The notes beneath the pieces were generated by a model. It worked only from the letters and a program-made list of their open reading frames with translations. It had not been told where the DNA came from and did no database searches. 64,000 bases of DNA from Flaccisagitta enflata (Eukaryota), in NCBI GenBank assembly GCA_965153355.1, contig OZ231126.1:36580001-36644000 (forward strand). Reading direction: 5' to 3'. The position numbers and the translations under genes are program-made. Shown here piece after piece: positions 9,182 to 21,100 of this stretch; the stretch's first letter is position 1; every line of letters starts with the position of its first letter.

Positions 9182-12100
9182 GTGATGCACGATGATGAAC
9201 GGTCATGTGACCTTGACAACGTGAGCACACTGTTCCCATACAGCGACTTAATCAGACTTGAGTGTCTGGGTTGGTGATTGATGGGGAAGTGTTCTCCAAT
9301 ATTATGGGAACATCAGCCAGTACAGTACGAGAATCAAAGAACTGGGTAACTGGAGGGAAGCCATATCTGTAAAACGGCTAGGATTCATGATCAAATTTTT
9401 TACCACAAAATGCACCTATAGGTGTACTATGTTGTTTAAGGTTTTGGAGCCATTCCAACAAATTCATTTTTTTTTGTCAAAAAAAATTTTTTTCTGTTTT
9501 TGGCTGATTTTGAACATAAAAATCACACTAAAAAAAAATTCTTTCATTTGTATGTTAGTTAGATAGTTTAATACAAATTTCATTTTTTGTTTGGGATTTT
9601 CCGCCAATTTTTGTGGCTATGGCACCCAAAACTAAAAAAACACAAAAAGTGGGATATTTCCTAGGATTTTCAATAAAATCCCTTGATTTTTGGTGTGGTA
9701 GTAGTTTTAGGATTCACTAATAAGTGTGCAAAATTTCAGTTCTTAAAATGAATTTTTGATACAGTTATGAAATTTTGAATTTTTCACAAAATGCAATGTA
9801 GGACGTTTTTTGGTCAAAAAATTTTTTTTTCAAATAAAAAATTCTGTCAATTGTTATTTTTTGATAAAATAAATAATAATCTAAGAGTTTCTAAAAAATG
9901 GGTCATTTTCACAAATTTTGAGAAAAAAATTTTTTTACTAAGAGGGCTAGTTCAAAAATTTTTTTAGAAACTCTTAGATTATTATTTATTTTATCAAAAA
10001 ATAACAATTGACAGAATTTTTTATTTGAAAAAAAAATTTTTTGACCAAAAAACGTCCTACATTGCATTTTGTGAAAAATTCAAAATTTCATAACTGTATC
10101 AAAAATTCATTTTAAGAACTGAAATTTTGCACACTTATTAGTGAATCCTAAAACTACTACCACACCAAAAATCAAGGGATTTTATTGAAAATCCTAGGAA
10201 ATATCCCACTTTTTGTGTTTTTTTAGTTTTGGGTGCCATAGCCACAAAAATTGGCGGAAAATCCCAAACAAAAAATGAAATTTGTATTAAACTATCTAAC
10301 TAACATACATATGAAAGAATTTTTTTTTAGTGTGATTTTTGTGTTCAAAATCAGCCAAAAACAGAAAAAAATTTTTTTTGACAAAAAAAAATGAATTTGT
10401 TGGAATGGCTCCAAAACCTTAAACAATATAGTACACCTATAGGTGCATTTTGTGGTAAAAAATTTGATCATGAATCCTAGCCGTTTTACAGATATGGCTT
10501 CCCTCCAGTTACCCAGTTCTTTGATTCTCGTACTGTATCTGGTAAGTTTTTTGGAAAGCAAAATTTTTGTAGAACACCCCTTGCTGCCTGGAAGGAAAAC
10601 CGGTCAGGTGGTGGCTTTTTATTTTTATAGTTTACCTTGTTTCGTTCATAACTTTGGAACGGATTGATCAAAATACCTGGGATTGGACTCATTGGCAAGA
10701 TATTTTGAAGTAAATTACGAAAAATATATCAAAAATGGGTTGTCACCTTGCAAAAGCTCTCTTGAGGCTGTCAAAAGAGACCTAAATGGTAAGAATTGTC
10801 AAAAATGACAACCCATGATTTTTTATGTCAAACGCAAGAGTCGTATGTCGCTGCTCAATAACTGATCCGGGATGACTTATCATTAACTAAGTTGATGATT
10901 TGGTACCCAAAGGGCCCACCAACAGAGCTCTCAGGGCCCGAAATTAAAACAAAAATGCCTAAATCAATCTAAATATTGACATTCGTGTTTATTATCCAAC
11001 GCACCTCTCTCTGAAGCTTTGTCTCTTGGTTGGTTAATTGATTGGCTGGTTGATTGATCAGTTGGTTGGTTGGTTGGTTGGTTGCATTTAAGAATCAATG
11101 GTGTCTTTAGAATCATGTTGCGTATTTTCTAGGTGGTGATTCAATCCTGGGGAGAAAAGTTATCAAATGAGACGCGATAAAGCATTTGCTATCACTTTTA
11201 GCTATTTTTTTAGTCGCATGCTATGTGACCCTACACCCCGCTATGTCAGTAGGTTGGTTGGTCGGTTGGTTGGTTGGTTGGTCAGTCCCCTTTTGGGCAG
11301 TGGCCCCTAAGGGGCCGATGACCTATGCTTTCACACAGGAGAAATTACTCCTTCTCCTTCTTCTATCATCTTCTCCTCCGTCCACCCCCTTCAAAGCTCA
11401 TATTGTTGCGTTGAGGCTTAAATCCAAACCTTGAGGCCCAAATCCTAGTCTCAAGGCCCAAATTCTAGCCTCAAAGGCCCAAACTCTAGCCTTGAAGCTC
11501 GAATCCCCACCTCAAGGTTCAAATCCAAGCTTAGAGGCTCAAATCCCAGCCTTGAGGCTCATTTCCCAACTTCGAGGCTCAAATCCCAGCCTCAAGGCTC
11601 AAATCCCAGCCTTGGCCGCAAGACTCAAATTCCAGCCTCAAGGCTCACATTCCATCCTCGAGGCTCACATTCCAACCTCAAGGCTCAAATCCCAACCTCA
11701 AGCCTCAATCCCAACCTCAAGCCTCAAATTCCAGCCGCGAGACTCAAATCACAGCCTTGAGGCTCAAATCACAGCCTCGAGGCTCAAATTATAGCCTTAA
11801 GACTCAAATCCCATTATTGATGCTCACTTTCAAGCCTAGATCCTCAAATCTTACTAAGCATAGGTCATCGGCCCCTTCAGAGCCGCTGCCCCTCTCAGCG
11901 CCGCTGCCCCTCTCAGCATCACACAACATATACTCACATAGGGGCAACGGGTACCGCTGTCCATCTTACGCTTTTGCGACTATTTACTTTTTTGGCGATT
12001 TTGAGCTTTTTGAGCATACGGCTCCTGCCAAAATGCTCTAGTGACCTTCTCCAGCACTGCTCCTACCCACCCGCACGCGACTAGGGCAGCCGTGTTTCCC

Positions 12101-18100: not shown

Positions 18101-21100
18101 CTACAACGTAAAGCTTTTGAAGGCCGTGAAGTTGTACAATGTTTCGCACGTTTAAATTGAGTATTGAATTTGTAATATAGAATTCTGAATTTTTTCTGCG
18201 ATCTTACATATTCAAATGTGAATTTTTCTGCAATCTTACTTATTTTACTGTGAATTTTTTTTGCTATATAGTGTATAAGATGTTTAAATGTTTGTAATAT
18301 TCAAGTTGCAACAAGGCGGGATTCACGGCTGCCCTAGTCGCATGTGGGTGGGCAGGAGCAGTGCTGGAGAAGGTCACTAGAGCATCTGGGCAGGAGCCGT
18401 ATGCTCAAAAAGCAGGCCTGTATATTATTGAGTTCCGCCCCCCGGTGGGGGGGGGGGAAATCAAAGGGTCTGGAGATGGGGAAGAAAATCAAAGGGGGAA
18501 AAAGAGAAAAAAAGGAAATTTGGGGCAAATAAATCACAATTAGTAAAACACAATTTAACACTATTTAAACCTTAACTACATTGTTTTATTGCTATATGGG
18601 GGAGAATATCATAGAAATAAAGATGCAACGCGACGCGTCGCGGGGAAGAAAATCAAAGGCAGGGGGAAATCAAAAGCGACTCAATAGTATACACCCCTGT
18701 CAAAAAGCTCATAAACGCCAAAAAAGTAAATAGTTGCAAAAGCGTTAGATGGTCAGCGGTACCCGTTGCCCCTATGTGAGTATATGTTATGTGATGCTGA
18801 GAGGGGCAGCGGCTCTGAAGGGGCCGATGACCTATGCTTAGTAAGTTTTGAGGATCTAGGCTTGAAAGTGAGCATCAATAATGGGATTTGAGTCTAAAGA
18901 ATGGAAATTGAGTCTCAAGGCTGTGAATTGAGCCTCAAGGTGGTGAATTGAGTCTCAAGGCTGTGATTTGAGCCTGGAGGCTGTGATTTGAGCCTGGAGG
19001 CTGTGATTTGAGCCTCGAGGCTGTGACTTGAGCCTGGAGGCTGTGATTTGAGCCTCGAGGCTGTGATTTGAGCCTCGAGGCTATGATTTGAGCCTCGAGG
19101 CTGTGATTTGAGTCTCGCAGCTCGAATTTGAGGCATGAGGTTGGGATTGAGGCTTGAGGTTGGGATTAGAGCCTTGTGTTTGGAATGTGAGCCTCAAGGA
19201 TGGAGTATGAGCCTTGAGGCTGAAATTTGAGCCTTGCGGCCAAGATTTGAGCCTCAAGGCTGGGATTTGAGCCTTGAGGCTGGGATTTGAGCCTCGATGT
19301 TGGGAATTGAGCCTCAAGGCTGGGATTTGAGCCTCTAAGCTTGGATTTGAGCCTTGAGGTGGGGATTTAAGCTTCAAGGCTAGAGTTAGGGCCTTGAGGC
19401 TAGAATTTGGGCCTCGAGACTAGGGTTTGGGCCTCAAGGTTTGGATTTGAGCCTCAACGCAACAATATGAGCTTGGAAGTGGGTGGACGGAGGAGAAGAA
19501 GAAGAAGAAGAAGAAGAAGAAGAAGAAGAAGAAGAAGAAGGAGAAATTTCTCCTGTGTGAAAGCATAGGTCATCGGCCCCTTTGGGGCCGCTGTTTAAAA
19601 GGGGACTGACCAACCAACCAACCAACCGACGGACGGACAAAGCGGGGTGTAAAGTCGCGTAGCATGCTACTAAAAAAAGATAGCTAAAAGTGATAGCAAA
19701 TGCTTTATCGCGTCTCATTAAATAACTTTTCTCCCCAGGATTGAATCACCACCTGGAAAATAAGCAACATGATTCTTAAGACACCATTAGTTTTTAGATG
19801 CATCATCGTATCTCTATAGGAGGGTTTGTCCATCTGTCAGTTGGTCTATCAGCCCATATGTTTGTCACGCCTTTTTCAAAAATCACGCAGCTGACGCATC
19901 GAGTTGCCGGGATGGGCTTTATGAATCATTCATGGGAATAATGCCTCCTAGGTTCCAGTTCACCAGCCATTGACAACCAACTGACCAACCAGCCAACCAA
20001 CCAACTGACCAATCAACCAGCCAATCAATGAACCAACCAAGAGACAAAGCTTCAGATAGAGGTGCGTTGGCGCACTTAAGGAATAAACACAAATGTCAAT
20101 ATATAGATTGATTTAAGCATTTTTGTTTTAATTTTGGGCCCTGAGAGCTCTGTTGGTGCTTTTGGTCCCAAATCATCAACTTAGTTAATGATAAGTCATC
20201 CTGGATCAGTTATAGAGCAGCGAGGCACGACTCTTGCGTTTGACATAAAAAATCATGGGTTGTCATTTTTGACAATTCTTACCATTTAGGTCTCTTTTGA
20301 CAGCCTCAAGAGAGCTTTTGCAATGTGACAACCCATTTTTGATGAATTTTCCGTAATTTACTTCAAAATATCTTACAAACGAGTCCAATCCCAGGTATTT
20401 TGATCAATTCGTTCCAAAGTTATGAACGAAACAAGGTAAACTATGAAAATAAAAAAGCCACCACCTGACTGGTTTTCCTTCCAGACAGCAAGGGGTGTTT
20501 TACAAAAATTTTGCTTTCCAAAAAACTTACCAGATAGTGGCTGATGTTCCCATAATATTGGAGAACACTTCCCCATCAATCACCAACCCAGACACTCAAG
20601 TCTGATTAAGTCGCTGTATGGGAACAGTGTGTCTGATTAACTGTCAATCTGTCATTTATTTTGTTACTTTTTTGGCTCTCCCATTCTGTTTACTCAAAAA
20701 AGCGTCTCGTAAGTATGATGGATTGGCTCAATCCAGGTTTGAGTGACGGATTCAAGAGATAGTATTTTGATGGAGTGAAAACAATTACAATAAATGTAGA
20801 GAAATAAAAATGTATTGACCTTTATTTCAGTTGACACGTTTCACGGGTGGAGTTGTTTTGGTTTCTGACTTTTTTAATCTGGTGATTAGATGTGACGTCT
20901 TTTACTTTCTTTACACTGAAGAACTCGTTCTATTCGGTTTACGTTTCTCGGTGTAGGATAAAAAGCACACACACACACACACACACACACACACACACAC
21001 ACACACACGCACACACACACACACACACACACACACACACACACACACACACACACACACACACACACACACACACACACACACACACACACACACACAC

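Follow-up and report, generated by a model that had tools for sequence, protein, structure and literature searches.

Reverse-complementary repeats facilitate back-splicing, and many circular RNAs (circRNAs) look like by-products of transposable element insertion (PMC8516420). Indeed, repeats of one family placed in opposite orientation around circularised exons have been described in mammals (PMC8516420) and in maize (bioRxiv 10.1101/100578). In C. elegans, intronic double-stranded RNA (dsRNA) of transposon origin is frequently encountered and can coexist with high expression of essential genes (PMC6239182), and editing-enriched regions and intronic inverted-repeat dsRNA have been reported as well (PMC4408787, PMC5859968). 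Innexin genes are themselves a source of circRNAs, as 16 circRNAs from nine genes were detected by divergent-primer RT-PCR in the slug Limax valentianus (PMC8049302). Both the promotion of circRNAs by reverse-complementary transposon pairs and the existence of innexin circRNAs are already published.

The locus described here, an innexin gene with transposon copies in introns 1 and 2, resembles the mammalian SINE/Alu and maize LINE-like pairs in that opposite-orientation repeats occupy both flanking introns, and pairing brings the splice sites together. It differs in that the arms belong to a multi-kb DNA transposon (approximately 3.7 kb alignable) instead of SINEs of approximately 300 nt, and in that the looped part is a single 175-nt coding exon, the circularisation of which is predicted only. 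The likeness to C. elegans lies in long intronic dsRNA from transposon inverted repeats in expressed, even essential, genes; whereas in the nematode such dsRNA was identified through editing or dsRNA immunoprecipitation and is mostly confined to one intron or untranslated region, the pair described here spans an exon and its duplex is predicted. With L. valentianus, in which circular transcripts were demonstrated, the locus shares the gene family; the circles of the slug comprise much of the coding sequence, whereas a single-exon circle is predicted here.

The gene hosting both copies is, as predicted from tblastn segments against a related transcript-like protein (P0002, from a 2,370-nt contig), an intact gap-junction (innexin) gene of nine exons, all open (Table 1). 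Exon 1 carries TM1 and the first EL1 cysteine (PIQCF) and is 87% identical to P0002. Exon 2 (75% identity over 63 aa) encodes, as a previous reading of the sequence only had proposed, the second EL1 cysteine (YCW) and an N-glycosylation sequon (NAS), both of which are conserved in P0002. Two EL1 cysteines and a YYQW motif are hallmarks of innexins, and PIQCF, YCW and, in exon 3, NYYQW were retrieved. In addition, the Pfam Innexin profile (PF00876; cut-off 25 bits) matched exons 1 (profile 1-45), 3, 5 and 6 with 40.3, 40.0, 26.3 and 41.6 bits, respectively; exon 2 alone scored 10.9 bits (profile 48-71), under the cut-off, and the pieces were collinear over exons 1, 2, 3, 5 and 6. The splice signals of exon 2 consist of a very strong polypyrimidine tract ((TC)40 followed by a CAG acceptor) and a good donor (GTGAGG). 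Joining exon 1 directly to exon 3 was computed to shift the reading frame, as had been claimed, so that translation would end 7 codons beyond the new junction. P0002 includes a complete exon 2; this does not show inclusion in the present gene, because P0002 could stem from a different species or from a paralogous gene, either of which might lack the transposons. In the ESM Atlas, taxonomic placement went no further than innexin clusters of arthropod/mollusc-like type. A search for P0002 in public metagenome contigs gave 77 pattern matches and no confirmed relatives, and the region 8500-22600 contained neither known RNA families nor tRNA-derived elements.

Table 1. Coordinates of the features of the innexin gene and its transposon copies, numbered within the window (the whole 64-kb stretch of DNA that was analysed)
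Feature	Position	Strand	Details
Innexin exon 1	8991..9181	+	ATG 8991, or 9024 as in P0002; ends ...ACGAG|GT, phase 2
Left TSD of copy A	9222..9225		TGAG; read from sequence
Transposon copy A	9226..14985	+	5,760 bp (4,545 bp minus nested insert); termini CACACTG...CAGTGTG
Nested foldback element	9323..10535		1,213 bp, inside copy A; termini CAGTACGAG
Inner arm of copy A	13868..14985	+	Pairs with 16184-17323; 88%, 1165 nt; innermost 549 nt approximately 95%
Loop between inner ends	14986..16183	+	1,198 nt; exon 2 is the sole exon inside
Right TSD of copy A	14986..14989		TGAG; read from sequence
(TC)40 tract	15118..15197	+	Immediately 5' of exon 2 acceptor
Innexin exon 2	15200..15374	+	175 nt, phase 2 to 0; flanked by ...CTCAG| and |GTGAGG
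Left-hand TSD of copy B	16180..16183		TCTG; read from sequence
Transposon copy B	16184..20631	-	4,448 bp; opposite orientation to copy A
Inner arm of copy B	16184..17323	+	Pairs with 13868-14985
Right-hand TSD of copy B	20632..20635		TCTG; read from sequence
Innexin exon 3	21504..21681	+	NYYQW, TM2; entered in phase 0; Pfam 40.0 bits, profile 77-118; tblastn
Remaining innexin segments	22328-22477, 26274-26423, 26599-26820	+	tblastn and Pfam, all open; splice sites approximate
Remaining innexin segments, continued to 29043	27389-27562, 27875-27958, 28933-29043	+	tblastn, all open; splice sites approximate

Copies A and B are separate insertions of the same element into introns 1 and 2, in opposite orientation. 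Self-BLAST alignments of the two copies end precisely at the element termini, and the inverted blocks, likewise recovered by a repeat search, are collinear. They comprise the outer ends (9226-9322 against 20631-20535; 99% over 97 nt, correctly inverted), 10536-11082 against 20536-19984 (92%), 11083-11850 against 19802-19005 (85%), 12005-12398 against 18413-18015 (91%), 12884-13390 against 17842-17324 (90%), and the inner arms. The sequence-only reading had assigned each copy its own target-site duplication (TSD) and had taken the copies for independent insertions, not an inverted duplication or fold-back artefact. Both statements hold, as the duplications are exact and differ between the copies, the flanks are unique, the divergence amounts to 8% and indels are copy-specific. 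An inverted segmental duplication is ruled out, as homology ends at the element termini and the TSDs differ. Further, a 37-nt terminal motif occurred four times in the window, exactly at the four ends (zero expected), and at no locus in public metagenome contigs. Public sequencing runs listed by shared sequence words numbered 24, with two DNA runs and one poly(A)-selected RNA run of one organism besides many marine metagenomes and metatranscriptomes, at shares of 0.10-0.49 (under half even in the best DNA runs); these shares do not serve as evidence of expression, habitat or arrangement.

Global alignment of both copies, performed without the nested insert of copy A, gave 91.6% identity over 3,691 aligned pairs (3,380 matches and 311 mismatches), with 757 and 854 gap columns and 10 or more indels with a length of at least 20 nt, the longest of which measures 477 nt in copy A and 295 nt in copy B. 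The matches, mismatches and indels of this alignment therefore indicate that the earlier estimate of about 4 kb of complementary sequence was right as to the inverted complement and overstated as to its extent, since the duplex would be a broken one of approximately 3.4-3.7 kb. The arms are collinear and inverted, with identities of 85 to 99% by block, and are interrupted by indels. Identity reaches 98% in the initial 250 columns of the alignment, compared with 91.6% overall; this unevenness suggests that the copies derived from already diverged sources, and dating of the insertions by A-B divergence was dropped on account of it. Both copies are old and protein-less, none of their 26 ORFs (at least 80 aa) matching Pfam at E<=0.01. 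The body of copy A consists of a 20-bp satellite and (GAAT)n arrays without coding capacity, inverted satellite arrays occur inside the copies (12410-12802, 12884-13252 and 17453-17843), and copy B has a terminal inverted repeat (TIR) of its own of approximately 267 nt at 71% identity (83% over the first 70 nt).

In Chapaev elements and their CMC (CACTA-Mirage-Chapaev) relatives, the hallmarks are termini that invariably read 5'-CAC...GTG-3' and a TSD of 3-4 bp, and Chapaev3 elements make TWA duplications (PMC4079192), in contrast to the TGAG and TCTG found here. All four ends of the present copies read CAC(A/G)CTGTTCCC... inward, resulting in CAC...GTG termini, and the 4-bp duplications TGAG/TGAG and TCTG/TCTG are exact at the alignment break points. 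Because of these ends, the 4-bp duplication and the satellite-filled body without transposase, the element is CMC/Chapaev-like by structure. It fits a non-autonomous TIR DNA transposon of the CMC/Chapaev type, a label given by ends and TSD alone, as the copies differ from typical members in having satellite DNA in place of a transposase with the defining DDE domain. The piggyBac and Kolobok superfamilies, which duplicate TTAA, were excluded by the observed 4-bp non-TTAA duplications, and Transib, which makes 5-bp duplications, was excluded by their length.

Copy A was itself the target of a second element. A TA target-site duplication combined with terminal inverted repeats is the hallmark of Tc1/mariner-type miniature elements (MITEs), and the nested foldback in copy A displays both, its TA being duplicated at 9321-9322 and 10536-10537. 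The homologous site in copy B is a single TA; the foldback hit copy A later and is younger than that copy. Its arms are identical apart from 3 mismatches in 576 positions, its minimum free energy is -933.7 kcal/mol, and neither of its two ORFs matched Pfam, no transposase being present. This hairpin is stronger than the cross-exon pairing, but local and self-contained.

Concerning the RNA, the complement between A and B contains 55 perfect runs of at least 20 nt, the longest being 108 nt. The inner 549-nt arms were predicted to form a duplex of -931.7 kcal/mol with 527 of the 549 bases paired (shuffle mean -171.5; n=10). For the 300-nt ends, pairing across the exon reached -497.3 kcal/mol versus -164.3 and -265.9 kcal/mol within each copy. 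The MFE fold of 14437-16731 is arm-to-arm, closing at 14985-16184, and its exon 2 bases pair with nothing outside the loop, in which, as previously noted, exon 2 is enclosed alone. Copy A ends 214 nt before the acceptor, and copy B begins 809 nt past the donor. As in repeat-driven circRNA loci, complementary repeats are present in both introns and the predicted stability across the exon exceeds that within the intron. The pre-mRNA could in principle form a clamp around exon 2, so that the very long duplex envisaged by the sequence-only reading appears feasible. The structure is true and ordinary in kind, with unusually long arms, its function in RNA being predicted only.

The innexin gene probably undergoes mostly normal splicing, with minor clamp by-products that are tolerated as a largely neutral result of insertion. 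In the sense pre-mRNA, the inner ends of A and B would zip outwards into a long imperfect duplex closing the 1.2-kb exon 2 loop, which may arise in a fraction of nascent transcripts. Most of the mRNA made from the gene would still be of the normal exon 1-2-3 form. Among the by-products may be a minor 175-nt exon 2 circle, a transcript joining exon 1 to exon 3, which should be degraded in view of its stop after 7 codons, and intronic dsRNA that could be edited or diced. The arrangement would then represent a largely neutral by-product of transposon insertion and not an evolved switch. Normal splicing is favoured by the strong exon 2 splice signals, the open exons and the whole exon 2 in P0002. 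Acting against the clamp, the duplex is interrupted by the 311 mismatches, the indels of 20 nt or more (at least 10) and the 1.2-kb nested hairpin, and the internal satellite arrays and own TIRs of each copy would form first during transcription. Moreover, exon 2, at 175 nt, is small for an exon that circularises by itself.

Some of these points would also fit two inert intronic insertions without any RNA-level consequence, which is a rather unlikely situation. By the time copy B is transcribed, intron 1 would then already have been spliced, or copy A would be locked in hairpins of its own or have been unwound by helicases. Competing local structures are plentiful (the foldback, the own ends of each copy and the palindromic satellite arrays, with the energies given above), the exon 2 splice signals are strong and the gene is intact, and kb-scale inverted repeats are common in the window, as illustrated by a 1.16-kb pair with 89% identity in intron 4. 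However, the cross-exon pairing of the ends is by far the most stable, and copy B begins only 809 nt past the exon 2 donor. Much shorter complementary repeats are, furthermore, sufficient for circularisation in other animals.

It is doubtful that the pair acts as a strong regulator, whereby a large share of the transcripts would end as the exon 2 circle and as skipped, frameshifted mRNA and innexin dosage would fall, perhaps in particular tissues or alleles. The length and stability of the arms, the stop shortly after the exon 1-exon 3 junction and the circRNAs of slug innexin genes (PMC8049302) are consistent with such a role. Yet, the circles of Limax measure 633-3,234 nt and are, in the available part of that report, not tied to intronic repeats (PMC8049302). 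In addition, a severe splicing defect is argued against because the copies are approximately 8% diverged and copy A predates its nested insert, and the gene is still fully open. Even less likely is that the 3.7-kb clamp would constitute an innexin dosage switch, with some tissues or alleles diverting a large share of transcripts into the 175-nt circle and degraded skipped mRNA and the arms feeding ADAR or RNA interference. If such a switch existed, the presence or absence of the insertions in wild marine populations would cause innexin expression to differ heritably between individuals. More boldly, the pair might be a composite transposon in the course of moving or inverting a coding exon.

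Closely linked cut-and-paste elements such as maize Ac/Ds and Drosophila P are capable of macrotransposition or alternative transposition, and the present copies are likewise close to each other, with outer ends that are intact, correctly oriented and usable together. That the locus would be a composite (macro)transposon operating through these ends, or that recombination would invert the exon 2 loop, making it unstable DNA instead of an RNA device, is nevertheless very improbable. Indeed, the similarity of the outer ends and of the first 250 aligned columns is compatible with it, but the ORF Pfam search revealed no transposase in the copies, in contrast to systems with a known active one; the outer flanks, TGAG on the left and TCTG on the right, each equal the inner flank of their own copy, so that no outer TSD is shared; and 8% divergence disfavours homologous inversion. 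An assembly artefact (a fold-back chimera or mis-join), suggested by the palindromic layout that characterises this artefact class, is the least credible explanation, as artefactual fold-backs are near-identical and devoid of TSDs, whereas the arms here differ by 8% and by numerous indels, both copies possess exact TSDs and unique flanks, and the TA-flanked nested foldback is missing from the homologous site of copy B.

Arrangements of this kind are well documented for mammals, plants and nematodes; new here, as structural annotation, is a non-autonomous transposon family with CAC ends and a 4-bp TSD, in which a TA-foldback is nested. If circle formation or skipping proved true, the locus would provide a clean natural test, in a non-model marine invertebrate, of the influence that the length of the arms, their mismatches and rival hairpins have on back-splicing efficiency. 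Its two arms were inserted independently and are datable, a single small exon lies between them, and a frameshift would serve as read-out; innexins, moreover, have already been reported as a source of circRNAs in a mollusc. Apart from copies A and B, kb-scale inverted repeats are a frequent feature of the window; the sequence-only reading had been silent on these, as it had on the 1,213-bp nested foldback.

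The region between 9226 and 20631 consisted of one transposable element in two copies of opposite orientation, one (copy A) in intron 1 (6,018 nt) and one (copy B) in intron 2 (6,129 nt) of an innexin gene on the plus strand. Self-BLAST aligned the copies in six collinear inverted blocks of 85-99% identity, which terminated exactly at 9226, 14985, 16184, and 20631. A 37-nt terminal motif (CACACTGTTCCCATAYAGCGAYTTAATCAGACTTGAG) occurred four times in the 64-kb window, solely at the four copy ends, versus zero occurrences expected by chance. The sequence-only reading had proposed independent insertions; indeed, the exact 4-bp target-site duplications differed from each other and the flanks were unrelated, showing that both copies were inserted separately. 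On the same grounds, the pair can have arisen neither by inverted segmental duplication nor as a fold-back artefact of the assembly. The idea that the pair acts as a composite transposon has formal support only, as the outer ends were intact and 99% alike; the duplication pattern indicates that each copy moved alone, which counts against it. At both insertion sites, the right flank carried T..G and then ATTAA, and at that of copy B the left flank additionally carried TTAAT (14986-14994, 16175-16183, and 20632-20640), which may reflect a target-site preference of the element that two sites cannot demonstrate.

Features of the innexin gene and the inverted transposon pair (positions in the window)
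Feature	Position	Strand	Description
Innexin exon 1	ends 9181	+	AG/GT; Pfam Innexin profile 1-45
Transposon copy A	9226-14985		5,760 bp; TGAG on both sides (exact 4 bp, read from sequence)
Nested foldback	9323-10535		1,213 bp, inside copy A
Innexin exon 2	15200-15374	+	175 nt; CTCAG/.../GTGAGG; Pfam Innexin profile 48-71, weak alone
Transposon copy B	16184-20631		4,448 bp; TCTG on both sides (exact 4 bp, read from sequence)
Innexin exon 3	starts 21504	+	Pfam Innexin profile 77-118
Innexin exon 5		+	Pfam Innexin profile 151-202
Innexin exon 6		+	Pfam Innexin profile 205-273

A 20-bp satellite (AGGCTCAAATCCCAGCCTCA), present in either orientation, filled both copies together with (GAAT)n arrays and further short repeats. 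None of their 26 ORFs of at least 80 aa had a Pfam match at E ≤ 0.01, and neither Rfam families nor tRNAs were found between 8500 and 22600. The terminal inverted repeat of the element itself spanned about 267 nt at 71% identity (83% for the first 70 nt). CAC...GTG termini and a 4-bp duplication, given as hallmarks of Chapaev elements (CMC group) in the available part of PMC4079192, were present here too, and the element is filed, by structure only, as a putative non-autonomous, CMC/Chapaev-like one. Searches of metagenome contigs returned no match to the 37-nt terminal motif and no related locus. The satellite also occurred at 60383-60935 and 36371-36863 (77-79% identity) without transposon termini, representing either an element-independent satellite or remnants of related elements. 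A subterminal motif (CTGGTAAGT / TTGGTAAGT), present once per intron on the plus strand (around 10539 and 16282), resembled a consensus 5' splice site in gene-sense orientation and is a possible cryptic donor.

Copy A carried a nested foldback with termini CAGTACGAG, the arms of which differed at 3 of 576 positions around a central spacer of about 61 nt. It was bordered by a TA duplication, whereas the homologous site in copy B was empty with a single TA, indicating a later insertion than that of copy A. A TA duplication and terminal inverted repeats are hallmarks of the Tc1/mariner type, and on this basis the foldback is likely a young MITE of this type. Global alignment of copy A minus this foldback with the reverse complement of copy B gave 3,380 matches and 311 mismatches (91.6% identity over 3,691 aligned pairs), with 757 and 854 gap columns and ten indels of at least 20 nt, the largest of which measured 477 nt (copy A), 295 nt, and 181 nt (both copy B). 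Identity varied along the alignment: the first 250 columns reached 98%, the inner ends about 95%, and the middle, rich in satellite, 82-93%. Perfect runs of at least 20 nt numbered 55 (longest 108 nt). The complementarity proposed earlier was thus borne out, but its extent of about 4 kb reduces to about 3.4-3.7 kb of interrupted duplex.

The Pfam Innexin matches on exons 1, 2, 3, 5, and 6 were in collinear order, and P0002, a 594-aa relative that is transcript-like given its source contig of 2,370 nt, aligned in nine open segments (9024-29043). The translation of exon 2 (75% identical to P0002 over the exon) included a YCW motif with the second EL1 cysteine as well as an N-glycosylation sequon (NAS), both kept in P0002 and in agreement with the sequence-only reading, as was the frameshift upon exon 2 skipping, the computed join of exons 1 and 3 reaching a stop after 7 further codons. 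Long (TC)n tracts, 97% alike over 101 nt, directly adjoined the acceptors of exons 2 and 4 (15118-15197 and 22221-22321), and similar (TC)n/(GA)n arrays recurred about ten times in the window. Between segments of the acidic C-terminal tail, a low-complexity stretch of trinucleotide type, about 650 nt long (28265-28912), would translate, depending on the frame, into poly-Ser, poly-Ile, poly-His, or poly-Met/Asp.

The inner transposon ends enclosed 1,198 nt, confirming the proposed 1.2-kb loop with exon 2 as sole exon, which is preceded by 214 nt and followed by 809 nt of loop sequence. Pairing across exon 2 is predicted to be thermodynamically favoured. Folding of the inner arms (14437-14985 with 16184-16731) yielded -931.7 kcal/mol with 527 of 549 bases paired, versus a mean of -171.5 kcal/mol for ten shuffled partners; the 300-nt inner ends yielded -497.3 kcal/mol across exon 2, and the own ends of copies A and B -164.3 and -265.9 kcal/mol, respectively. 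In the minimum free energy fold of 14437-16731, the arms paired up to 14985-16184, leaving exon 2 wholly inside the loop. Predicted competitors forming earlier in transcription are the nested foldback (-933.7 kcal/mol as a self-contained local hairpin), the internal palindromic satellite arrays, and the own terminal repeats of each copy.

Sequence features suggest that exon 2 inclusion would be mostly normal. First, its acceptor context was very strong, with (TC)40 followed by CAG, and its donor was good. Second, nine of nine innexin exons were open. Third, the copies have diverged, copy A being older than its nested insert. Lastly, the transcript-like P0002 contains the whole exon 2. As copy B starts only 809 nt past the exon 2 donor, it is plausible that still unspliced copy A would pair with it in a fraction of the transcripts. 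Minor by-products would comprise an exon 2 circle, an exon 2-skipped mRNA that stops early, and intronic dsRNA subject to editing or dicing, all expected to result incidentally from the insertions and not to serve a function. This agrees with the available parts of PMC8516420, in which many circRNAs are viewed as by-products of transposable element insertion, and of PMC6239182, which reports that well-expressed and essential C. elegans genes commonly contain transposon-derived intronic dsRNA.

For mammals and maize, the accessible text of PMC8516420 and bioRxiv 10.1101/100578 describes transposable element pairs that flank exons undergoing circularisation, and the pair around innexin exon 2 is, in its structure, a true, well-resolved case of this known kind. 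Among the matches listed for innexins and circRNAs, judged by titles and abstract starts, only PMC8049302 has innexin circRNAs as its subject, its available part reporting 16 circRNAs (633-3,234 nt) from nine Limax innexin genes by divergent-primer RT-PCR. Kilobase-scale inverted repeats were frequent in the window; the exon 2 pair stands out by its arm length and its single frameshifting exon, its effect on RNA being predicted. Intron 4 of the same gene wholly contained an inverted pair (22907-24017 versus 26175-25016; 89% over 1,162 nt), which was made up of tandemly arranged units, offset as direct repeats by about 506-522 bp (24133-25478 versus 24639-26000; 88%). Further palindromic stretches occurred just upstream of innexin exon 1 (8243-8713; 75% over 485 nt) and at 2892-3634 (71% over 755 nt).
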